From a phage: a stretch of DNA of 64,000 nt. A program made the position numbers and the translations under genes. This document shows, piece after piece, positions 21,993-62,500 of this stretch. A model generated the notes under the pieces. The model searched no databases, was not told where the DNA came from, and was given only the letters and a program-made list of their open reading frames with translations. The stretch lies in sequence record PX880099.1, one strand, 5' to 3'. How positions within the stretch are numbered: position 1 is the stretch's first letter; every line of letters starts with the position of its first letter.

Positions 21993-22017
21993 CATATCTG
22001 TAGCAATAGGAGGTCGT

Positions 22018-23983: not shown

Positions 23984-24637
23984 CTATACCAGACTTTCAA
24001 GGTATTTGTCAAGGGCTTCTTGATCACCTTGACAAACATAGCAACGGAAGTCTTGAGCCGAAGGTTGTTTATTTTCATCCCAGTCCCAATAAACATTACC
24101 CTTATAACGTGAACCAGGAAACTCAAAAGAGGCTGTATGTGTAATGTATCCTGGGCCACCAGTGAAATCACAGAATGAGAATTGGGGGTATGCCGCCTTT
24201 ACTGCCTCAATAAACCAAGCTTTACGATCTAAAGCTTCATTGATGCTATACGCATGTCTCTCCATTTCTTCCCACGTTTTCCAGACACTTCTTTCATCAG
24301 GAGAAAAGACAAGCCATTCTGGAAGGTAGAGAGTGTCATAGTAATCATCATATTCGATCTCGGAGGCGCACGAGGCTGACTCCTCCAGTCTTGAGTAATC
24401 AAAAGCAGAATATACCCACCAACCATCTTCCAGTAAGGCTTTGATAGGGACGAAGCCTTTATCAGCATATTGATCGAATTGTTTGACACGGTGGCTTGTG
24501 CAGTCTTCAAACTCACATTCTAAACGATATGACCCTTTTCGACGAGCCTCAAGACCGTGTGTACTGAAAATAACAACACTTCCTTCACCATCATTACGAT
24601 CTACTTGATAAGCAACTACTGGTTTTGAATTTGACAT
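23984..24637 (-). CDS. hypothetical protein (217 aa)
   Basis: ORF, last gene of leftward operon 23984-26651. Confidence 0.55.
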   Translation of the reverse strand: MSNSKPVVAYQVDRNDGEGSVVIFSTHGLEARRKGSYRLECEFEDCTSHRVKQFDQYADKGFVPIKALLEDGWWVYSAFDYSRLEESASCASEIEYDDYYDTLYLPEWLVFSPDERSVWKTWEEMERHAYSINEALDRKAWFIEAVKAAYPQFSFCDFTGGPGYITHTASFEFPGSRYKGNVYWDWDENKQPSAQDFRCYVCQGDQEALDKYLESLV

Positions 24638-25320
24638 TATTTCTCCTTATCTAGAAGATTATTAGACAAAAACACTGCACGGGCAAAACCACGTGCTGTT
24701 AGTGATCTAAGTTGTTTTGTTTTTGCACTAGCTCCACCTAAGCTTTTCCAACCCCAGAAGCAGCCTATATGATCTACTGGTTTCTTCACTGGTTGAACAA
24801 AACCATTGCCGTGCCAAATACAAGTTTTCTTTGTATACCCATCACGGGTAGGCATTTTAGGATGAAAGCTTCCTTCCTCTTCAAACAAATACCCACCATA
24901 CTCATAAGGATCAAAGTAAAAATCGGGTTTACGCCATAAGGTTGAAAGTTTACCTACTGGGTTCTCAATCATCCAAGGAACATTATATTTGTTACCCAAA
25001 GCTTCCACTACACGAATATTAGCTAAAGCTTCATCTAATTCCTCTGTGCTACGTTCGTGTTTGCTACCACTACCTGCTAACATAGTGCAAGGTGGAAATC
25101 CAAAAATAATATCGGGTTTAGGTATCCCATAATCTTCAGGGTTGAATGTAGAATCTATCCAGGCATTCACATAGGTTATGTTTGGGTGCTCCATCCTAAC
25201 CTCGTATTTACCGTGATCCCCTTCATCAGCGTTTACACAAAAACACTTGTGACCTGCTTCGGCATAACGTAACACCATGATCCCAGATCCGTCAAACATA
25301 GACAAAACTGTTTTACTCAT
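24637..25320 (-). CDS. C5-cytosine methyltransferase-like protein (short, about 228 aa)
   Basis: Motif I-like LSMFDGSG, motif IV-like FGFPPC, motif VI-like ENPVG; start moved to ATG 25320 (SD GGAGG). Confidence 0.45.
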   Translation of the reverse strand: MSKTVLSMFDGSGIMVLRYAEAGHKCFCVNADEGDHGKYEVRMEHPNITYVNAWIDSTFNPEDYGIPKPDIIFGFPPCTMLAGSGSKHERSTEELDEALANIRVVEALGNKYNVPWMIENPVGKLSTLWRKPDFYFDPYEYGGYLFEEEGSFHPKMPTRDGYTKKTCIWHGNGFVQPVKKPVDHIGCFWGWKSLGGASAKTKQLRSLTARGFARAVFLSNNLLDKEK

Positions 25321-25708
25321 TACCCCTCCATTCAAGACAAGCCATAACTTTACGCCAATCACTTTCTGTAAGAAAAATCTCGTTTGCTTTCTTCCACAAA
25401 TCTAAATCGTGAAGGGTTGGAATACGATATGTTAGTTCACAGAATCTATGCTCTTCTTCTGTAATATAACCAAAATGCAGAGCCACATCGTGAAACCAAC
25501 ACCAACCATGCATCTCTCGAACAACATGGTCATGTTGAGACATTGTTTTATGCCGTAAACCTAACCAACAAGGAACGGATACTTTAGTAGTCTTTAATCT
25601 GTGATCAACAGTATTAGAGTATTCAATAATAGCTGTCAGTTTCAATCGTGCTTTTTCTAAATCCTCATGCGTCACTTTGAAATAACTTTCTGAAAGATAT
25701 CCACACAT
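25313..25708 (-). CDS. hypothetical protein (131 aa)
   Basis: ATG 25708 with SD AAGGAGG 8 nt upstream; track start is TTG 25726. Confidence 0.5.
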   Translation of the reverse strand: MCGYLSESYFKVTHEDLEKARLKLTAIIEYSNTVDHRLKTTKVSVPCWLGLRHKTMSQHDHVVREMHGWCWFHDVALHFGYITEEEHRFCELTYRIPTLHDLDLWKKANEIFLTESDWRKVMACLEWRGNE

Positions 25709-25709
25709 A

Positions 25710-26651
25710 TTAATAACCTCCTTCAAAAGGCTTTACTACATGTTGATTAGCTTTAAAACGTTCAACATAGTCGTTTTCACCCATGTTTTCATATAGTTTA
25801 GTAACAACATAAAAGTTTTCCCAAGCATATTCCCTAAACCAACCACTAGTGATGGATGTGCAGACTTTAGATAAAGCCATTATAAAACTTTGCTTAGGGG
25901 TTGGACCTCCGATCTCTTCACCGAAAGGAATTTGTGAACGTTCCAAAGCCAAAACACACGCTTCTTCATAAACACCTAACAGGCGCACATGTTTTGGTTG
26001 AGCAAAAAACTTTTCTTTGCTGGTCATAACTTCACTTCCATCTTTCATATAAGATTTATATGCTGGAGCATCCATTACCGCGATTGCTTCATGGATAGAA
26101 TCATGATCATAAACATACGGAACCTCATCACCTTTAAAGAAGTCTTTACTTTTTACGTTTAAGTTTGGATGAGAGTAAGTGTATGTTTCTTTCTCACGCA
26201 ACTCATAAATACTCTTAAGATTTTCTGGGATCTTTGCGCCCAGTGATCGCATGAAATGAATATCTTTCATAGTTTTAAAGAAGTGAGGACTATCCTTTTT
26301 AAAACGATGACTCATTTTAAGAAGGTAGAGCACATCTAAAGGAGCAACAACGTGTCCAGCGTAAGTTCGACGAATATCATCAGAGTCTTCACAATAACTA
26401 ATCAAAGCTTCTGTGCTATCTCCTTGAGAAGCAATATCGTATTCCAAATGTGCACCAGCTATCATTTTGACATGGCCTTTGTTCCCTTTACGTTCTACAA
26501 GTTCAACAAACTCATCTTGAGAGAACATTTTTGATAATTCTTCCCACTCTTGTTCTGTACACAGGTAATCTAGATCTACACAAGGGCGATACAAGTCTTT
26601 TCCCATGTCCATAGCATGAATTTGTAATGCACGGCTACCAATTAACACCAT
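25710..26651 (-). CDS. hypothetical protein, possible nucleotidyltransferase-like N-terminus
   Basis: LIGSRAL...VDLD resembles GS...DxD; weak. Confidence 0.5.
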   Translation of the reverse strand: MVLIGSRALQIHAMDMGKDLYRPCVDLDYLCTEQEWEELSKMFSQDEFVELVERKGNKGHVKMIAGAHLEYDIASQGDSTEALISYCEDSDDIRRTYAGHVVAPLDVLYLLKMSHRFKKDSPHFFKTMKDIHFMRSLGAKIPENLKSIYELREKETYTYSHPNLNVKSKDFFKGDEVPYVYDHDSIHEAIAVMDAPAYKSYMKDGSEVMTSKEKFFAQPKHVRLLGVYEEACVLALERSQIPFGEEIGGPTPKQSFIMALSKVCTSITSGWFREYAWENFYVVTKLYENMGENDYVERFKANQHVVKPFEGGY

Positions 26652-26681: not shown

Positions 26682-26710
26682 AGTTTATCAAGCTTCCAGA
26701 TTCCTGTCAA
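26682..26710 (-). promoter_or_regulatory. leftward sigma70-like promoter (TTGACA-17-TAAACT)
   Basis: Reverse complement of 26705-26710 is TTGACA; of 26682-26687 is TAAACT. Confidence 0.5.
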
Positions 26711-26715
26711 TAAAA

Positions 26716-26733
26716 AACCCGCCGAAGCGGGTT
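26716..26733 (-). terminator. leftward terminator AACCCGC-UUCG-GCGGGUU + U5
   Basis: Hairpin with T-run on reverse strand (plus-strand AAAAA 26712-26716). Confidence 0.65.
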
Positions 26734-26741
26734 ATTATTTA

Positions 26742-27014
26742 CTAACACATTGAGGAAGAAGAGATCCAAACACCTCTTGTGGTTAAACCATTTTCATCCA
26801 ACTCTACACCATAATCTTCACAAATGAAATCAATATAGTGATCTGCGGCTGGCGTTCCTGTAGGGTAATAAGTTTCTCCGTTACCGTAGTCACCTATCCA
26901 AGCTTGTTCCTGGAACTGTTCACAAAGTTCTTCAATTTCCTTACGAAACTTTCTTTGTGCTTGTTCCATCTCTTTAACTTTCTTTTTTATCAGCAGTTCG
27001 CCTTCAGATTCCAC
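26742..27014 (-). CDS. small protein with C-terminal W-x-SSSS-x-C tail (family C, member 1)
   Basis: C-terminus TRGVWISSSSMC. Confidence 0.5.
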   Translation of the reverse strand: MESEGELLIKKKVKEMEQAQRKFRKEIEELCEQFQEQAWIGDYGNGETYYPTGTPAADHYIDFICEDYGVELDENGLTTRGVWISSSSMC

Positions 27015-27023
27015 AATCTCTCC

Positions 27024-27284
27024 TTAACAGCTACTACTGTGCCAAACGCCTTGAGAATTAACGACGAAACCATCATCACCTTCACCATAACAAGAAGAGG
27101 ATTGCCAATCTTCAAAACAGATTGCGTCATTTTCTAAACTAAGACCAAAACCAGCATCTTCAGCTTCTTTTGTAAGTTCGTCCACTAAAGCCATAATAGC
27201 TTGGGCTTTTTCAGTTAATTCTTCAACATTACGATCACTCATTAGTATTTCTCCTCCGGTTGGAAAACTGAACGACAAGCCCAC
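27024..27284 (-). CDS. small protein with C-terminal WHSSSC tail (family C, member 2)
   Basis: C-terminus SQGVWHSSSC plus internal EDWQSSSCYGEGDDGF. Confidence 0.5.
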   Translation of the reverse strand: MGLSFSFPTGGEILMSDRNVEELTEKAQAIMALVDELTKEAEDAGFGLSLENDAICFEDWQSSSCYGEGDDGFVVNSQGVWHSSSC

Positions 27285-27556
27285 ATACTAGCTTCTTTTA
27301 AATGTTTAATAGCACAACGGATTTGATCAATACGTTCGTATGCAAGATCTAATTCTTTTTCTGTGCCGTCAAAAGACCCATGATATGCTTCACAATACTC
27401 TTCCTCTAAAGCTTTGAAGATTAAACCTAAACGCTCTTCTGCATCTTTAATAGCGTTAACCTTGCCAATCTTATCGTCAGTATGCGCCTTATAACCTTTG
27501 ATATCTTCGATTCCCACTTTACCTCCTATTAACAACTTAAAGAAGATGGATGCCAA
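27242..27556 (-). CDS. hypothetical protein (104 aa)
   Basis: ORF. Confidence 0.45.
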   Translation of the reverse strand: MASIFFKLLIGGKVGIEDIKGYKAHTDDKIGKVNAIKDAEERLGLIFKALEEEYCEAYHGSFDGTEKELDLAYERIDQIRCAIKHLKEASMWACRSVFQPEEKY

Positions 27557-27726
27557 TTTGTTCCAGTATTCTCATTTTCATCTTCTGGATCATAATAACC
27601 ACCCATCCCATATTCAGGGGAGAAACGGAAACCTTTACCAGTCTCATCTGCTAACTGCTCTGCTTCCGCTAAAGCCTCATAAGCTGCTTTTACGGCTTCT
27701 TCTACTGTTTTAAACTTGGTCGTCAT
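27529..27726 (-). CDS. small protein with C-terminal WHPSSLSC tail (family C, member 3)
   Basis: C-terminus TGTNWHPSSLSC. Confidence 0.5.
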   Translation of the reverse strand: MTTKFKTVEEAVKAAYEALAEAEQLADETGKGFRFSPEYGMGGYYDPEDENENTGTNWHPSSLSC

Positions 27727-28000: not shown

Positions 28001-28491
28001 AAAACCTCCTCAATCTTGTAGTTTGACTCCATCTCCAACACATTTCCACGAACGTCTCTCCGAAGAAAGGCATAAGCTTTATTAGGTATTGTAGACTCAT
28101 ATTTAACCATATCTGGCACAGCAAAAGATACTACTACTCCTGCTGGGCTTCTGTCAAGAGCCTTATTAATATTTCTAAGGATATCGTTAGCCAAGATTTC
28201 TGCCAATTCTCCAAGAACAGTTTCGGTTATATCTTTATATCCCATTAAGTATTTGTTGATATCTTTCATCTCTGTATTGTTCAGAGTATAGTCCAAAGGA
28301 TAGAAATTCAAAGCGGAGTCACTTTTATGTGTCCACATGAAATGCACCCGATCCGAGCAGAATCGTAACCCTCTGTGAAGAATATCTTCTACAACAGGGA
28401 GAATTTCTTTTGTCACATCATTAACCATGTTGTAATCTAAGATTTCTGCCAAGTTTGTTCTTTGTTCACCACGTTTACGTTTAGGAATCAC
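27979..28491 (-). CDS. hypothetical protein (170 aa)
   Basis: ORF. Confidence 0.5.
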   Translation of the reverse strand: MIPKRKRGEQRTNLAEILDYNMVNDVTKEILPVVEDILHRGLRFCSDRVHFMWTHKSDSALNFYPLDYTLNNTEMKDINKYLMGYKDITETVLGELAEILANDILRNINKALDRSPAGVVVSFAVPDMVKYESTIPNKAYAFLRRDVRGNVLEMESNYKIEEVLWQSSDQ

Positions 28492-29062
28492 TTGTTATTG
28501 CCCTCATTACCAAAGGTCGTAGAAAATCGTAAATCTCTTGTTTTGTTTTCCCACGAATGTTTAAACAAGGAACATTATTGGCTTTAGCTATCTTCCAAGC
28601 CGTAGCTGTTCCACCTTTTGCATCTCCATGTTTATCAGTATTAGCACAAGCCAACAAGAAACATGATGGAGCAGGATTCTCCAAATCTCTACCTAACACT
28701 TGATGCACATTACGTTGGTGCAATTTTCTAGCACCCTGCTTAAGCTTTTCATAGGCTGGGTGAACATCTTTGATCCATTGCACAGAGATAGCATAGTTCA
28801 TTGTATCTGGTTTTGCAAGAACAATAACATCCCCTGGAATCTGATTACCTTTGAAATTTTCCCAAGGAACATAAATCTCCTTGTTAGTAGGATTTTCAGA
28901 CTCTTGGACACCTGTTTCAAAAGCAGAATCACTACCCTCTGCCTTCCCAGACCTTAATTTAAACCCAAGGTTTGAAAGCCATTTCCCTATGCCTACCATC
29001 AAAGCCCACTCTTCTTCGGATATGTCTCTACTTCCAACTCCCGTATAGAACAGTTCTGCCAT
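28481..29062 (-). CDS. DprA/Smf-like (SLOG-type Rossmann fold) protein
   Basis: FYTGVGSRD ... RSGKAEGSDSAFETG resembles the GxR ... SGGAxGxDxxA pattern; start at ATG 29062 (SD GAGGTG). Confidence 0.4.
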   Translation of the reverse strand: MAELFYTGVGSRDISEEEWALMVGIGKWLSNLGFKLRSGKAEGSDSAFETGVQESENPTNKEIYVPWENFKGNQIPGDVIVLAKPDTMNYAISVQWIKDVHPAYEKLKQGARKLHQRNVHQVLGRDLENPAPSCFLLACANTDKHGDAKGGTATAWKIAKANNVPCLNIRGKTKQEIYDFLRPLVMRAITSDS

Positions 29063-29069
29063 AATCACC

Positions 29070-29378
29070 TCAACAAGTAATTTCAAAAGGTGTATAGGGT
29101 TCCGTATTTCTCATGATCCAAGGACTGCTAGGATTGCTCGGATCATAAGGACCGAAAGGTTTTATGGTAGGTTGTGTTTCTTTCTTCTGAATCTCTTCAA
29201 AAATACGACGAAGTTCAGAATATTCTTGATCCACCATAAGATTCGGTGCATCTGATTCTACAGCTTGCAGGTTATTTTCCTTAAAAACAACCTCACGAAC
29301 AAGATTAACATCCTCTGTTTCTAAGATAACTTCTTTACGGATATTACCTACACTTTGAATAATTGTAATCTTATACAT
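29070..29378 (-). CDS. hypothetical protein (102 aa)
   Basis: ORF. Confidence 0.5.
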   Translation of the reverse strand: MYKITIIQSVGNIRKEVILETEDVNLVREVVFKENNLQAVESDAPNLMVDQEYSELRRIFEEIQKKETQPTIKPFGPYDPSNPSSPWIMRNTEPYTPFEITC

Positions 29379-30121
29379 TAATCCTCCTCAAGAGTTGAAT
29401 AAAATTGAAGACCACCGTCCATATCGAAATAAGCAAATGTTAAGTTATTATTGAACACAGATCCAGTATCCATATAAACACGATTCGCATTGATAATAGG
29501 TGTTTTTACATAAGAGTGTCCATGAAACACATAATCCACACCCATCACAACAGGAAGTTTCATTCCCTCTTTAGCACAGTCTACCATGTCTCTGTCCCAC
29601 ATAAGTGCTTCAGCAAAACGGTTTTCCTGTGTTTTTGTCATCTTCAAAATGTATTCTGGAATATCTGTTACAGGGAGATATTCCAAAGAAGATGGATACC
29701 CACCATGAATAAACGCAAGTTTCATGCCTCTGTAGTTAACAATGAGAACAACAGGTAAATCTTCTGTCATCATTGCTAAGGCTGTAGCTCCTTCTTCACC
29801 ACATTCTTCAAGGACCGTATATCCTCCATTTTGATACCAACACTCGAAGTAGCTACGATCTCCTTCCAGCATACCTTTAATCATCATATCTTCATGATTT
29901 CCACGAACAGCGTAGCGATTGTGTTTACGAGTAAATTCTAAAACACAACGAAAGTTTTGCTTTCCACGGTCAGTAAGATCTCCTAAAGATACAACTACAT
30001 CTGTATCTCGGATACCTAACTTTGCCTTTCCTTTTTCATACAAATTATAACAACCGTGTAGATCTCCAATTATAAAAAGATCTTGATCGCTTTTAACAGT
30101 AATTTCTCTGTGTATGATCAC
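29378..30121 (-). CDS. Ser/Thr protein phosphatase (calcineurin-like metallophosphoesterase)
   Basis: GDLHG, GDLTDRG, GNHE motifs. Confidence 0.85.
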   Translation of the reverse strand: MIIHREITVKSDQDLFIIGDLHGCYNLYEKGKAKLGIRDTDVVVSLGDLTDRGKQNFRCVLEFTRKHNRYAVRGNHEDMMIKGMLEGDRSYFECWYQNGGYTVLEECGEEGATALAMMTEDLPVVLIVNYRGMKLAFIHGGYPSSLEYLPVTDIPEYILKMTKTQENRFAEALMWDRDMVDCAKEGMKLPVVMGVDYVFHGHSYVKTPIINANRVYMDTGSVFNNNLTFAYFDMDGGLQFYSTLEED

Positions 30122-59676: not shown

Positions 59677-59751
59677 GGCCCTGTAGCTCAATGGGAGAGC
59701 TGTCGGCTCATAACCGATAGGTAGCTGGATCGAAACCAGCCAGGGCCACCA
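59677..59751 (+). tRNA. tRNA-Met (CAT), elongator type or Ile-lysidine
   Basis: Hand-folded cloverleaf: acceptor GGCCCTG/CAGGGCC, anticodon loop CTCATAA, T-arm GCTGG-ATCGAAA-CCAGC, CCA encoded. Confidence 0.75.
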
Positions 59752-59753
59752 AC

Positions 59754-59828
59754 GTCTTTATGGTGTAATGGATAGCACAGGAGTCTTCTAAACTCTTAGT
59801 CAAGGTTCGATTCCTTGTAAAGACACCA
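59754..59828 (+). tRNA. tRNA-Arg (TCT)
   Basis: Acceptor GTCTTTA/TAAAGAC, anticodon loop CTTCTAA, T-arm CAAGG-TTCGATT-CCTTG, CCA encoded. Confidence 0.75.
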
Positions 59829-60024
59829 GAACATTTTAACATGAATTAGCTCAAGTGATTTGAACCCACTACTGATCATGGTGGCAGAGAATGAGGCAAG
59901 TATGTCAGAAATTATAAACAAAGGCCACGGTTATATTAGAAGACATAAATGCTCGAAGAGCACCGTTCGTGGAGAACGGGGGTTGGTGGAGTCACCATTC
60001 ATGGTAAAATGTTTTAAAAAACTA

Positions 60025-60059
60025 TTGACAACAAACATTATTTTATGTTAGATTATAAG
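60025..60059 (+). promoter_or_regulatory. promoter, tRNA-cluster type (TTGACA-N11-ATGTTAGATT)
   Basis: TTGACA 60025-60030; ATGTTAGAT 60045-60053. Confidence 0.5.
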
Positions 60060-60062
60060 TAT

Positions 60063-60153
60063 GGAAGGGCAAATCGACGTGGCGACGAAAACGGTCTTGA
60101 AAACCGCCGAGCTTGAAAGAGCCTTGGGAGTTCGACTCTCCCTCCTTCCGCCA
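60063..60153 (+). tRNA. tRNA-Ser (TGA), long variable arm, atypical D-arm
   Basis: Acceptor GGAAGGG/TCCTTCC, discriminator G, anticodon arm ACGGT-CTTGAAA-ACCGC like E. coli Ser-UGA, T-arm GGGAG-TTCGACT-CTCCC; D-stem could not be paired by hand. Confidence 0.55.
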
Positions 60154-60158
60154 GATTA

Positions 60159-60244
60159 GGTAGATTGGTGAAATGGTAGCCACAACAGTTTGCTAAACTG
60201 TAGTCGGAAACGGCGTGTAGGTTCGAGTCCTACATCTACCGCCA
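60159..60244 (+). tRNA. tRNA-Ser (GCT), type II
   Basis: Acceptor GGTAGAT/ATCTACC, anticodon loop TTGCTAA, long variable arm, T-arm GTAGG-TTCGAGT-CCTAC. Confidence 0.75.
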
Positions 60245-60415
60245 AGTTATCTTTAATGTAGCTTGTTGCTCTTAGTTGCTTGGTGTAACTTTTTGGAAGG
60301 ATGGCTGCAACCATCTTACTTTAATAGAGTAAACTTTCGGCAGATGGCCCCCACCATCTTACCGATACCTCATAGTCAGTGGTGCGAACACTGGCTATTT
60401 TAAAGATAATTTTAT

Positions 60416-60490
60416 ACATCGTTAGCCAAGCGGTAAGGCACTTGACTTTTAATCAAGGGAGCGAAGGTTCGAATCCTTCACGATGTACCA
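60416..60490 (+). tRNA. tRNA-Lys (TTT)
   Basis: Acceptor ACATCGT/ACGATGT, anticodon arm CTTGA-CTTTTAA-TCAAG, T-arm GAAGG-TTCGAAT-CCTTC. Confidence 0.7.
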
Positions 60491-60495
60491 AACAC

Positions 60496-60582
60496 GTAGG
60501 TATCGCATAGCGGCAATTGCTGGAGACTGTAAATCTCCTGCCCTTCGGGGCTTCGTTGGTTCGAGTCCAACTACCTGCACCA
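60496..60582 (+). tRNA. tRNA-Tyr (GTA), type II
   Basis: Acceptor GTAGGTA/TACCTGC, anticodon arm GGAGA-CTGTAAA-TCTCC, long variable arm, T-arm GTTGG-TTCGAGT-CCAAC. Confidence 0.75.
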
Positions 60583-60589
60583 AATTAAA

Positions 60590-60674
60590 GATGGATTGGC
60601 CTAGTGGTTGGGCGACGGACTGTTAATCCGTGAACGAAAGTTCTAGCAAGGTTCAAATCCTTGATCCATCGCCA
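60590..60674 (+). tRNA. unusual type II tRNA with anticodon GTT (Asn codons) on a Ser/Tyr-like scaffold
   Basis: Perfect acceptor GATGGAT/ATCCATC, discriminator G, 3-bp D-stem GCC/GGC, anticodon arm ACGGA-CTGTTAA-TCCGT, 15-nt extra arm GAACGAAAGTTCTAG, T-arm CAAGG-TTCAAAT-CCTTG. Confidence 0.6.
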
Positions 60675-60753
60675 AATAGTGCTTGTAGAGTTAATAGAAA
60701 CCTCTAGAATTTTCTAGAATTGTAGATATCAAATCCTACCAAGCAAATATTTT

Positions 60754-60828
60754 GCTCCTATCGTATAACGGCTATTACGGTTGCCTTGTAAGCAACTTAT
60801 CAGGGTTCGAGTCCTTGTGGGAGCACCA
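60754..60828 (+). tRNA. tRNA-Thr (TGT)
   Basis: Acceptor GCTCCTA/TGGGAGC, anticodon arm GTTGC-CTTGTAA-GCAAC, T-loop TTCGAGT. Confidence 0.7.
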
Positions 60829-60850
60829 ATTTAACTCTAAAGGAGTGTAT

Positions 60851-61174
60851 GTGACAGAAAAAGAGTTAGAGAAATATTTTAATATCAATGTTTTCGATGG
60901 TTTTGATGATATTGAAGATGTTGAAAGATATTATGAAGTAGAGTTAGATAAGGATAACATTGTAATTCTTTCTGCCACTTATGATTGTGCATATTATGAA
61001 GGTGAATCTCACGTTTATTTCTATGATATGAAAACATCTTTGTTTTATGAAGTACACGCATATCATTGTTCTTGTTATGGCTTAGAAGGTCAGTGGGAAC
61101 CTGAAGAAATAGGTGATTTGAGCTTTACGGTTGCATATCTAAACAGACGTGGTGCATCTACTATTTTAAAATAA
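60851..61174 (+). CDS. hypothetical protein inside tRNA cluster (107 aa, GTG start)
   Basis: SD TAAAGGAG then GTG 60851; track ORF (from TTG 60752) trimmed because it overlaps tRNA-Thr. Confidence 0.5.
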   Translation: MTEKELEKYFNINVFDGFDDIEDVERYYEVELDKDNIVILSATYDCAYYEGESHVYFYDMKTSLFYEVHAYHCSCYGLEGQWEPEEIGDLSFTVAYLNRRGASTILK

Positions 61175-61188
61175 ATATTAAAAGCCTC

Positions 61189-61218
61189 TTGACAAAGGGG
61201 CTAATAATATGTTAGAGT
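61189..61218 (+). promoter_or_regulatory. promoter, tRNA-cluster type (TTGACA-N11-ATGTTAGAGT)
   Basis: TTGACA 61189-61194; ATGTTAGAG 61209-61217. Confidence 0.5.
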
Positions 61219-61229
61219 AATATTGTTAA

Positions 61230-61304
61230 GCGGGTATAGTGTTAATGGTAGCATATGAGGTTTCCACCCTCCAGGTGCAGGTTCAAGTCCTGTTACTCGC
61301 TCCA
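61230..61304 (+). tRNA. tRNA-Gly (TCC)
   Basis: Acceptor GCGGGTA/TACTCGC, discriminator T, anticodon loop TTTCCAC, T-loop TTCAAGT. Confidence 0.7.
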
Positions 61305-61404
61305 AGATTATTTAAATGGAATCGCTAGAGAAAATTTCTCTTTTCGCTCATGGTTTTCTCCTTCAAACTCTAGCGGTTCTTTTTAAGTGATTTTTTAGTT
61401 TTAT

Positions 61405-61479
61405 TGGAGATTAGCCTAGTGGGAAGGCAACGGCCTTTGAAGTCGTGATGACTAGGTTCGATTCCTAGATCTCCAGCCA
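61405..61479 (+). tRNA. tRNA-Gln (TTG)
   Basis: Acceptor TGGAGAT/ATCTCCA (U1-A72 as in E. coli Gln), discriminator G, anticodon loop CTTTGAA, T-arm CTAGG-TTCGATT-CCTAG. Confidence 0.7.
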
Positions 61480-61486
61480 ATATTTA

Positions 61487-61562
61487 CAGTGCGTAGCGCA
61501 GTTGGTAGCGTGGGAGCTTTGGACGCTTCAGGTCGCAGGTTCGAGTCCTGCCGCACTGACCA
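61487..61562 (+). tRNA. tRNA-Pro (TGG)
   Basis: Acceptor CAGTGCG/CGCACTG (C1-G72), anticodon arm GGAGC-TTTGGAC-GCTTC, T-arm GCAGG-TTCGAGT-CCTGC. Confidence 0.75.
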
Positions 61563-61567
61563 AATTT

Positions 61568-61642
61568 GCAGAGATAGCTGAGACGGATTAGTGCTACCCT
61601 GAAAAGGTAGAAAGGATGGATCGTTACCATCTCTCTGCACCA
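61568..61642 (+). tRNA. tRNA-Phe (GAA), non-canonical T-loop
   Basis: Acceptor GCAGAGA/TCTCTGC, anticodon arm CTACC-CTGAAAA-GGTAG, T-arm GATGG-ATCGTTA-CCATC. Confidence 0.6.
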
Positions 61643-61719
61643 AATAACACCATCCAAGGAGTAGACTTGGTTAACTGTCAATAGCACATTGAGGCTTCTT
61701 ACAGTGGTGTACTTATTAT

Positions 61720-61804
61720 GGCTAAGTGGTGGAATGGTATACACGATACGCTTAGAACGTATTGCCCCAAGGGATTGTGAGTTCGAGTCTCACCTTAGCT
61801 ACCA
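61720..61804 (+). tRNA. tRNA-Leu (TAG), type II
   Basis: Acceptor GGCTAAG/CTTAGCT, discriminator A, anticodon arm ATACG-CTTAGAA-CGTAT, long variable arm, T-arm GTGAG-TTCGAGT-CTCAC. Confidence 0.7.
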
Positions 61805-61819
61805 AATTATTAGATGTTT

Positions 61820-61898
61820 CGCGGGATAGAGGAGTCTGGTCGTCCTCGCCAGTTTCATATGCTGGAGATCGTTGGTTCAAATCCAACTCCCGTTACCA
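61820..61898 (+). tRNA. initiator-like tRNA-fMet (CAT)
   Basis: 5' CGCGGGA like E. coli initiator CGCGGGG; 1:72 mismatch (C/U); A11:U24 in D-stem; anticodon loop TTCATAT; T-arm GTTGG-TTCAAAT-CCAAC. Confidence 0.55.
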
Positions 61899-61917
61899 AA
61901 TTTTGCAAGGAGATAAA

Positions 61918-62331
61918 GTGACAGCCAAGAAATCAGCCCAGTTGGGAATGAACGTAAGTACCGCTACGGGCAGGTTAACAAAAGATATAATGTGGCGACT
62001 GATCGTTCAGACAAATCAGAACATGTGCTTTCATTGCGGTAAAGAAATGACGAGAGAAGACTTCTCCATCGAGCACAAAGTTCCTTGGTTGGATAGTGAA
62101 AACCCACAAGACTTATTTTTTGACTTGGACAATATTGCTTTCAGTCACTTATCCTGTAATGTTGCCGCAGCACGTAAGCCGAACAAAGGTATTATTCCTC
62201 ATGGAACATCATCAGGATATGATACTCACAAATGTAGGTGTGATGCATGCAAAGCAGCAAAAGCTGCAAGACGTAAAAAAGAATACACACCAGAAAAGCG
62301 CAGAGCAACTTACGAGCGTACTGGTAAATAG
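61918..62331 (+). CDS. HNH homing-endonuclease-like protein inside tRNA cluster
   Basis: CFHCGKEM...IEHKVPW...NIAFSHLSCN; GTG 61918 after SD AGGAG; track ORF (from 61762) trimmed because it overlaps tRNA genes. Confidence 0.65.
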   Translation: MTAKKSAQLGMNVSTATGRLTKDIMWRLIVQTNQNMCFHCGKEMTREDFSIEHKVPWLDSENPQDLFFDLDNIAFSHLSCNVAAARKPNKGIIPHGTSSGYDTHKCRCDACKAAKAARRKKEYTPEKRRATYERTGK

Positions 62332-62336
62332 ATAAT

Positions 62337-62419
62337 AGCCGGGTAGATTTAAAAGAGTATGGTACTCAATATGGCTCCAAACCATAGATCAGGGGGTTCG
62401 ATTCCTCACCTTGCTGCCA
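62337..62419 (+). tRNA. tRNA-Trp (CCA)-like, irregular (possible pseudo-tRNA)
   Basis: Anticodon arm TATGG-CTCCAAA-CCATA matches E. coli Trp loop; T-arm GGGGG-TTCGATT-CCTCA; acceptor AGCCGGG/CCTTGCT has 1 mismatch; extra nt between acceptor and D-stem. Confidence 0.35.
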
Positions 62420-62424
62420 ATTAT

Positions 62425-62500
62425 TGTGGTATCGTACAGATGGTTAGTACACTCGACCGATAATCGAGAAACAACGGTTCGACTCCGTTTACCACGACCA
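62425..62500 (+). tRNA. tRNA-Ile (GAT), C33 in anticodon loop
   Basis: Acceptor TGTGGTA/TACCACG, D-arm GTAC-AGATGGTTA-GTAC, anticodon arm CTCGA-CCGATAA-TCGAG, T-arm AACGG-TTCGACT-CCGTT. Confidence 0.55.

Follow-up and report, generated by a model that had tools for sequence, protein, structure and literature searches.

A conserved C-terminal Ser/Cys tail in arrays of small acidic phage proteins and its near-obligate synteny with a predicted nucleotidyltransferase

Introduction

Three small proteins encoded close together in a 64,000-nucleotide stretch of phage DNA (record PX880099.1; the whole stretch is the window hereafter) share a Ser/Cys-rich C-terminal tail, and the question that this locus raises is what such a tail is for and which protein, if any, reads it. 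A first-pass annotation described the N-terminal parts of the three as helical, charged and divergent, likened the proteins to precursor peptides with a variable leader or to substrates of lipid/prenyl-type C-terminal processing, and pointed to enzymes of unknown function encoded downstream. Here, we examine the family to which these proteins belong, its predicted fold and its association with one downstream enzyme, and we weigh four explanations for the tail.

Results

The locus and its three tail-bearing proteins

At 98-99.5% identity, the window matches genomes of Phapecoctavirus, a group of phAPEC8-like E. coli myoviruses of ~150 kb within the Stephanstirmvirinae. The three genes, whose products we term P65, P72 and P90, lie within a long minus-strand block of small genes that mostly lack annotation. 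The features of the locus are:

27529..27726, minus strand: P65, small acidic protein, 65 aa, pI 4.3 (phrog_899 E=1.2e-12; family HMM E=2.8e-17)
27242..27517, minus strand: protein assigned by profile to the Acb2/Tad1-hairpin family, 91 aa, GTG start (PF24729 E=1.2e-16; phrog_717)
27024..27242, minus strand: P72, small acidic protein, 72 aa, pI 4.05 (divergent phrog_899 member, E=1.4e-5; HMM E=0.004; annotated as a CDS in a RefSeq relative)
26742..27014, minus strand: P90, small acidic protein, 90 aa, pI 4.4 (phrog_899 E=5.1e-14)
26716..26733, minus strand: intrinsic-terminator-like hairpin, 7 bp with 5 GC and a T-run, closing the small-protein operon (annotated as a terminator in a RefSeq relative)
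26682..26710, minus strand: sigma-70-like promoter, TTGACA-17-TAAACT with an extended -10 TG, directly upstream of the enzyme gene (a consensus match only)
25710..26651, minus strand: 313-aa DUF7277 + DUF7275 protein (phrog_2141), the syntenic partner of the small-protein family and here called the enzyme

The enzyme gene, starting at 26651, thus follows closely on the array, which ends at 26742. All three ORFs of the first-pass annotation are present on the minus strand with the shared endings that it reported; what it overlooked is the 91-aa gene (27517..27242) between P65 and P72. The product of this gene matches PF24729 at 61 bits, against a cut-off of 27, over the full profile length (1-58), and by this match it belongs to the Acb2/Tad1-hairpin family and not to the tail family; PF24729 matches none of P65, P72 and P90. 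Acb2 is a proven family of anti-CBASS cyclic-nucleotide sponges. Its insertion into the array is lineage-specific: in a contig from a related phage (L041) the Acb2 gene is absent and the three small genes are contiguous. The second ORF had also been given as 86 aa, the length that results from a start at 27284. An ATG at 27242 yields 72 aa, carries a GGAGG ribosome-binding site, overlaps the preceding gene in a TAATG, and agrees with the RefSeq annotation of phage Schickermooser, where the counterpart is 72 aa; for these reasons the shorter form is most likely the correct one.

P65, P72 and P90 share the ending W-x-[S/P]-S-S-x(0-2)-Cys-stop. P65, which ends in ...TGTNWHPSSLSC, consists of an N-terminal helix, a YGMGGYY hairpin motif and the tail W58-H-P-S-S-L-S-C65 (nt 27532-27555), and its sole Cys is the final residue. 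P72 ends in ...SQGVWHSSSC, with zero spacer before the Cys of its terminal tail W67-H-S-S-S-C72 (nt 27027-27044), and the internal copy noticed at first pass (...EDWQSSSCYGEGDDGF) is indeed there, as W46-Q-S-S-S-C51 (nt 27090-27107) followed by YGEG. P90, which ends in ...TRGVWISSSSMC, has a helix at residues 4-34, a G-D-Y-G-N-G-E-T-Y-Y-P hairpin and the tail G81-V-W83-I-S-S-S-S-M-C90 (nt 26745-26768). Among stop-to-stop segments of at least 30 aa in the window, the tail pattern matches 3 of 1067, namely these three proteins, and in a complete 142,881-bp Phapecoctavirus genome it matches 3 of 2306 segments, namely their orthologues; these counts rule out a tail arising by chance. Serine in the tail is encoded by TCN codons in some copies and by AGY codons in others, which rules out a DNA repeat and places the conservation at the protein level. 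The three proteins find no family match in Pfam, NCBIfam or PADLOC. Their matches to phrog_899, a PHROGs family without assigned function, reach the C-terminal end of the profile or stop within one residue of it.

The tail is the most conserved part of a divergent phage family

Relatives of these proteins are widespread: word-indexed searches retrieved 85, an exhaustive profile search retrieved 324 clusters at 50% identity, and tblastn found relatives in hundreds of GenBank phages, all annotated 'hypothetical'. Those in T4-like phages come from Escherichia, Klebsiella, Enterobacter, Citrobacter, Serratia, Aeromonas and Acinetobacter hosts, and further tblastn relatives occur in Pseudomonas, Ralstonia and Providencia phages. 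Two profile matches of 1084 and 1504 aa are MBG/NHL repeat proteins, and we set them aside as spurious Gly/Tyr-rich matches.

In an alignment of 45 sequences the only invariant columns are W83, S86, S87 and C90 (P90 numbering), with Y43, G44, G46 and Y49 near-invariant. Cysteine is the last residue in 215 of 225 small relatives, the last Trp stands exactly 7 residues before the end in 207, and 120 have no Cys other than the terminal one; the mean net charge of the same 225 proteins is -9. For 360 non-redundant tails of the main class the logo reads G(-9)-x-W(-7)-[V/I/M]-[S/A/P](-5)-S(-4)-S(-3)-x-x-C(0), in which W(-7), S(-4) and C(0) are 100% and S(-3) 97.5% conserved. A minority of members, P72 included, have a zero or one-residue spacer before the Cys, and in zero-spacer tails Pro, Ala or Thr may occupy position -3. 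In many members, additional W-x-S-S copies lie internally within an acidic linker. Even between distant phages, then, no feature of the family is better conserved than the Ser/Cys C-terminus reported at first pass, with W, S, S and the terminal C invariant, and since the tail is the part that homologues retain best, a lack of conservation in related phages no longer comes into question. The description of the N-terminal parts holds for their helix, which AlphaFold2 predicts, and for their charge; the part taken to be variable has conserved motifs of its own, A-D/E-x-x-G-x-x-F and Y-G-x-G-x-x-Y-Y-P.

Tail-bearing genes occur in viral contigs as tandem arrays of 2-6, with up to five in a row in T4-like genomes and six in some contigs. 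Three paralogue classes have orthologues in different lineages: P65 typifies the YGMGG class, P90 the YGNGETYYP class and P72 the 'DW-SS-CYGE...W-SSC' class, the last found in T4-like loci as well. Each class keeps 42-57% identity between T4-like and phAPEC8-like phages, which suggests that each has its own function beyond enzyme binding.

Some tail bearers fall into other PHROGs (phrog_23943, phrog_4882) or into none, making at least three PHROG families altogether, and one is a fusion with an N-terminal WYL_2 domain. The idea that the tail is common to unrelated proteins is upheld only in part: the PHROGs split the tail bearers, whereas permissive BLAST places 304 of 321 in one cluster, and the longer and other-PHROG bearers all end, by inspection, in the same helix-strand-tail module. 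Because BLAST unites so many and the longer bearers share this module, the simpler view is that the tail bearers are likely one divergent superfamily by sequence, some members of which have added N-terminal domains.

In the AlphaFold2 model the tail is part of a compact domain

AlphaFold2 models P90 with a mean pLDDT of 95.2, a pTM of 0.80 and no segment below 50, as a compact domain of a helix and a 3-stranded sheet. The tail is part of this domain, forming a strand (residues 82-85) and a turn (86-88) at a pLDDT of about 90. The small proteins are predicted to share a module of ~50-60 residues, in which an amphipathic helix and a short beta-sheet precede the final strand/turn G-x-W-[V/I]-[S/A/P]-S-S-x-x-Cys-COOH. 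A structural search of the PDB with the small-protein model gave no fold match, so the predicted fold has no solved relative, and the model showed no structural similarity to known sponges. Because the tail sits inside the folded domain in the model, it is perhaps structural rather than an accessible substrate.

Tail proteins and one enzyme are near-obligate neighbors

The function-unknown enzyme that had been noticed downstream proves to be linked to the tail proteins by near-obligate synteny across phage lineages. Among 37 viral loci, partly redundant, fetched with a small-protein profile built from the YGMGGTY subset of the family, 34 have an enzyme homologue within ~1.6 kb on the same strand, downstream of the profile match in 33 and upstream in one; the remaining three are cut by contig ends, so the enzyme is present in 34 of 34 loci with enough flank. 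No neighbor other than the enzyme is broadly conserved in these 37 loci. A NinI-like Ser/Thr phosphatase encoded upstream, which had come into consideration as an actor on the SSS tail, was ruled out because it is not a recurrent neighbor in them.

In the reverse direction, tail-bearing ORFs are found in 72 of 80 loci (again partly redundant) fetched with the enzyme. In these loci a strict tail pattern matches 150 of the 974 same-strand ORFs in the 2.5 kb upstream of the enzyme, 2 of 1642 same-strand ORFs elsewhere and none of the 2871 on the opposite strand. Of the eight loci that seem to be exceptions, two carry variant tails; a lineage without tail genes directly upstream of the enzyme has a tail-bearing ORF 6 kb away, and a few enzyme loci (L097, L113) lack a tail gene nearby. 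When GenBank phage records are tallied by host genus, the small-protein and enzyme queries give nearly the same numbers: Escherichia 253 versus 260, Klebsiella 34 versus 35, Enterobacter 34 versus 36, Shigella 18 versus 18 and Serratia 9 versus 9.

This synteny spans T4-like, phAPEC8-like, jumbo and other phages, and in many other loci the last small gene stops 10-20 nt before the enzyme start. Each enzyme is accompanied by 2-6 distinct tail-bearing proteins whose shared feature is the C-terminal helix-strand-tail module, a many-to-one pattern that is typical of substrates or clients. At the level of gene order, an enzyme and the proteins that are its partners or substrates would be expected to leave a genomic signature of just this kind, near-obligate synteny.

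The partner is predicted to be a phage-restricted nucleotidyltransferase

The closest structural relatives of the enzyme are nucleotidyltransferases (NTases), to which ~147 of its 313 residues align: MenT1 (score 11.7), TglT/MenT3 (10.2), ANT(2'') (9.9), Megavirus poly(A) polymerase (9.5), TM1012 (9.1), LnuA (9.1), MenT4 (8.8) and a putative NTase from H. pylori (4ok0; 8.8). We predict on this basis a pol-beta-type nucleotidyltransferase of the MenT/AbiEii/ANT structural clade. In the reactions of its nearest structural relatives, the hydroxyl that receives the NMP belongs either to a tRNA 3' end or to a small molecule. Residues G5-S6, D26/D28, E70 and K112, which supply the GS...DxD...(D/E) catalytic core, are invariant in its homologues, and for that reason it is probably active as a nucleotidyltransferase. 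The helical C-terminal half (~150 residues) contains invariant H161, H183-D184, H187 and C264-T-S-I-T-S-G270 and gave no structural match.

Sequence searches place the enzyme apart from characterized families. PDB sequences hold no relative, PADLOC models give no match, and Pfam returns only DUF7277 and DUF7275, with no DUF1814/AbiEii even at E<=10 on split domains. Identity with the RNA-repair NTase RlaP (mentioned in PMC7824862) was ruled out, there being no Pfam match. The enzyme has a pI of about 5.7 and a net charge of -10, so that it is acidic like the small proteins (net about -9). The families phrog_2141, DUF7277 and DUF7275 carry no assigned function.

The enzyme occurs in 640 of 50,697 GenBank phage records and has more than 2,200 homologues in a large protein collection. 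A scan of 185,579 prokaryotic species genomes, which used exact peptide patterns and could miss distant cellular relatives, returned 5 matches, all on MAG contigs; four of these contigs (73-167 kb) are probably phage, and the fifth is 2.3 kb long. By these counts the enzyme appears restricted to phages, being almost absent from prokaryotic genomes. In the searchable literature, we found no mention of phrog_899, phrog_2141, DUF7275, DUF7277, PF23940/PF23942, the tail motif, the pairing of the two families, or Acb2 in phAPEC8-like phages.

Discussion

A direct functional pairing, with the tail as the feature that the enzyme reads, best accounts for the observations: the invariant C-terminus is locked in position, many paralogues accompany each enzyme, the synteny is near-obligate across unrelated lineages, and the predicted fold of the enzyme is one that nucleotidylylates hydroxyls. 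Tail-enzyme contact, covalent modification, its chemistry and a biological role are what we infer from these features. Specifically, we propose that the array of small, very acidic proteins and one dedicated MenT/ANT-like nucleotidyltransferase (DUF7277-DUF7275) would form a phage-specific two-component module, in which the invariant tail would be the recognition element for the enzyme, and covalent modification of the tail by the enzyme would draw on an NTP or a nucleotide-activated group. The hydroxyls of the invariant Ser-Ser pair would be the most likely acceptors, with the thiol or carboxylate of the terminal Cys serving as a second recognition point or taking part in follow-up chemistry. 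A candidate chemistry is Ser O-nucleotidylylation; alternatively, nucleotidylylation could drive the elimination of a Ser, whereupon the terminal Cys would attack and form a lanthionine-like staple at the C-terminus. Once modified, the small proteins, each of which keeps a conserved body of its own, may then act as early host-takeover or counter-defense effectors. We put at roughly 0.35 the probability that the enzyme recognizes the tail and probably modifies it covalently, most likely on the Ser-Ser hydroxyls.

Covalent modification is favored over mere binding by the many-to-one pattern and by the precedent of NTase-type enzymes that act on dedicated partner proteins. In the small acidic carrier proteins CitD and MdcC, a Ser receives a nucleotide-derived prosthetic group from CitX and MdcG (EC 2.7.7.61/66), and GlnD, GlnE and MntA nucleotidylylate PII, GS and HepT, respectively. 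As functional analogies, these systems resemble the proposed module in pairing an NTase-type enzyme with the hydroxyl of a dedicated small partner encoded nearby. They differ in that their acceptor motifs are unrelated to the tail and their partners have neither a conserved C-terminal Cys nor paralogue arrays, and we detected no homology of the module to the CitX/MdcG, GlnD, GlnE or MntA families.

Several observations weigh against this proposal. The tail lies inside a folded domain in the AlphaFold2 model and may be structural; enzyme and small proteins are both acidic, which does not favor a simple electrostatic complex; in this phage a terminator lies between the array and the enzyme gene, which has a promoter of its own; a few enzyme loci (L097, L113) have no nearby tail gene; and the substrates of the enzyme's nearest structural neighbors are tRNA 3' ends or antibiotics rather than proteins. 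In its fullest form, the proposal describes a new phage-specific protein-tagging or modification system, in which a MenT/ANT-like nucleotidyltransferase with a novel C-terminal domain modifies the -W-x-S-S-S-x-x-Cys-COOH end of small acidic proteins with a new fold, these serving as early effectors in ~1% of sequenced phages; this form we offer as a tentative one.

The main alternative is that the small helical proteins bind the nucleotidyltransferase non-covalently as regulators, antitoxin-like proteins or adaptors. With the tail or the helix docked in or near the active site, they might inhibit the enzyme, set when it works or steer it toward various targets, host tRNAs among them. Such a reading has an analogue in MenA1, a 68-aa helical antitoxin encoded upstream of the MenT1 NTase, which blocks its active sites (PMC10435456). 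The NTase fold with its GS...DxD...(D/E) core is predicted to be common to the phage enzyme and to MenT1 and the wider MenT/AbiEii (DUF1814) group. The likeness goes only so far, however. Two to six conserved, distinct paralogue classes per enzyme are atypical of toxin-antitoxin pairs, which are one-to-one, as is MenT1 with its single partner; the C-terminus of MenA1 is dispensable (PMC10435456), whereas the extreme C-terminus here is invariant; and the module is phage-encoded rather than a chromosomal toxin-antitoxin system. The enzyme itself also departs from the MenT toxins, being acidic where they are RNA-binding, carrying an extra conserved C-terminal half of ~150 residues, and lacking any sequence-level relationship to AbiEii/MenT in Pfam, PADLOC and PDB sequence searches, and in this phage its gene has its own promoter after a terminator. 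On balance we consider a purely regulatory role of the small proteins somewhat unlikely.

A further possibility is that the small proteins are autonomous effectors, in which the tail and the YGxGxxYY hairpin together form a structural element or a ligand or metal site, and that the enzyme belongs to the same pathway or gene island and never touches them. They could, for example, be sponges for a nucleotide or an immune signal, or build a metal site from the terminal cysteines of an oligomer. The confident folding of the tail into the domain by AlphaFold2 speaks for this, as do the aromatic (Y, Y, W), Gly-rich and Ser-rich conserved residues, which recall many nucleotide-binding pockets, the presence of the proven sponge family Acb2 inside the array in this phage, and the small size and acidity of the proteins and their place in a block of small, mostly uncharacterized genes. 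The single terminal Cys of many members could contribute to a metal or disulfide site, through oligomerization only, since there is just the one at the terminus. Such autonomy would leave unexplained both the near-obligate adjacency to one enzyme across very different lineages and the fixed terminal position of the Cys; moreover, the Acb2 insertion is lineage-specific, being absent in L041, and the small-protein fold resembles neither known sponges nor any PDB fold. We judge autonomous action unlikely.

Very improbable, finally, is the first-pass suggestion of a classical RiPP precursor or a lipid/prenyl-anchored peptide, with a disordered leader that directs a maturase to a Ser/Cys-rich core before cleavage or lipidation: several paralogues do adjoin one enzyme, and the Ser...Cys spacing formally permits lanthionine- or AviCys-type chemistry, but the predicted fold is compact, with the tail as an integral strand/turn and no disordered leader; Pfam and PHROG scans of the neighbors found only DUF7277/DUF7275, Acb2, DprA-like and methyltransferase proteins and unknowns, and no LanB/LanC/LanM/LanKC/LanD, YcaO, radical-SAM, ATP-grasp, prenyltransferase, protease or exporter; and the Cys is the last residue in 215 of 225 relatives, not at -4 as in a CaaX box, while the N-termini are charged helices without a signal peptide or lipobox. 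The likeness to RiPP systems is one of arrangement. As in RiPP precursor arrays, where many LanA or ProcA peptides are served by one synthetase, paralogous small products share one short invariant Ser/Cys motif beside a single adjoining enzyme, and as in the AviCys substrates of LanD/EpiD, a C-terminal Cys follows Ser residues at a distance of a few positions. Zero-spacer tails in which residue -3 is Pro, Ala or Thr rule out a fixed ring of the AviCys kind between Ser(-3) and Cys. In contrast to a leader-core organization, the tail proteins are predicted to be folded domains in which the conserved element corresponds to the 'core' and the rest has conserved structural motifs as well.

Returning to the proposed recognition of the tail by the enzyme, the module resembles, by analogy, known systems of an NTase plus a small partner protein in kind. 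What is new beyond the NTase core is the partner fold, the invariant C-terminal Cys motif, the paralogue arrays, the C-terminal domain of the enzyme and the restriction to phages. Many T4-like, phAPEC8-like and jumbo phages that serve in therapy and as models carry the enzyme; their hosts include Escherichia, Klebsiella, Acinetobacter, Aeromonas and Pseudomonas. An invariant terminal Cys, a predicted fold without a solved counterpart and a near-obligate pairing with an NTase together make a sharply defined and cheaply testable hypothesis. If the tail does undergo modification, viruses would have a new kind of post-translational chemistry and NTases a new substrate class; regulation of the enzyme by the small proteins would instead point to a phage-borne MenAT-like module with multi-partner control. 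Either way, two sizeable 'dark matter' phage families, and an island that holds an anti-CBASS gene, would gain a functional context.

Genomic surroundings of the array

The tandem array of tail-bearing genes and its syntenic partner, the predicted MenT/ANT-like nucleotidyltransferase (hereafter the enzyme), lie in a block of about 36 kb with negative GC skew; the skew switches sign near positions 22000 and 58000 of the window. Every gene examined in this block, over about 24.6-30.1 kb, is encoded on the minus strand, and the matching region of an annotated RefSeq relative carries Sir2, HslV-like peptidase, PhoH-like and 'histidyl tRNA synthetase'-like genes. The following genes flank the enzyme and array:

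24637-25362 (-): Dcm-like DNA methyltransferase, phrog_757
25313-25726 (-): 137-aa protein of the unknown-function family phrog_16551
28481-29086 (-): DprA-like protein, phrog_768
29378-30121 (-): NinI-like Ser/Thr metallophosphatase

The phrog_16551 gene is directly 3' of the enzyme gene and, together with it, the methyltransferase gene forms the immediate downstream neighborhood; the methyltransferase gene likewise lies downstream of the enzyme gene in a tail-less lineage (L045 and L130). Upstream of the array, in the same strand block, are the DprA-like gene, for whose product a Pfam match was not found, and the NinI-like gene, both of which are absent from the recurring neighbors in the 37 viral loci fetched with the small-protein profile.

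The window also encodes a tRNA cluster:

59677-62500 (+): 14 tRNA genes (Met x2, Arg, Ser, Lys, Tyr, Asn, Thr, Gly, Gln, Pro, Phe, Leu, Ile)

This cluster is relevant to the module because the structures closest to that of the enzyme are those of MenT toxins, which modify the 3' ends of tRNAs, and because the module-carrying phages are large myoviruses, of kinds that usually encode tRNAs.

Fusions and spurious matches

One related locus, L111, encodes a fusion of the small-protein module:

L111 2458-3030 (+): 190-aa protein, WYL_2 (PF10902, E=3.9e-8) plus phrog_899-type module

Its N-terminal WYL_2 domain, an Sm-like SH3 barrel, precedes a C-terminal phrog_899-type module ending ...SWSSSSMIC, a possible sensor-plus-tail architecture. 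Two long proteins, P0098 and P0187 (1084 and 1504 aa), also matched the family profile in multiple stretches. These are MBG/GLUG and NHL-repeat proteins. The matches cover Gly/Tyr-rich repeats similar to the YGxGxxYYPxG hairpin and almost certainly do not reflect homology.

An Acb2 gene within the array

In the window, the first tail-bearing gene is separated from the second by an inserted member of the Acb2/Tad1-hairpin proteins, an anti-CBASS cyclic-nucleotide sponge family:

27242-27517 (-): 91-aa Acb2/Tad1-hairpin protein, PF24729 (E=1.2e-16), phrog_717

Since the three small genes are contiguous, without an Acb2/Tad1-hairpin gene, in the 153-kb related viral contig L041, the window's Acb2 gene is a lineage-specific insertion. 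This insertion identifies the array as a place where counter-defence genes can be taken up.
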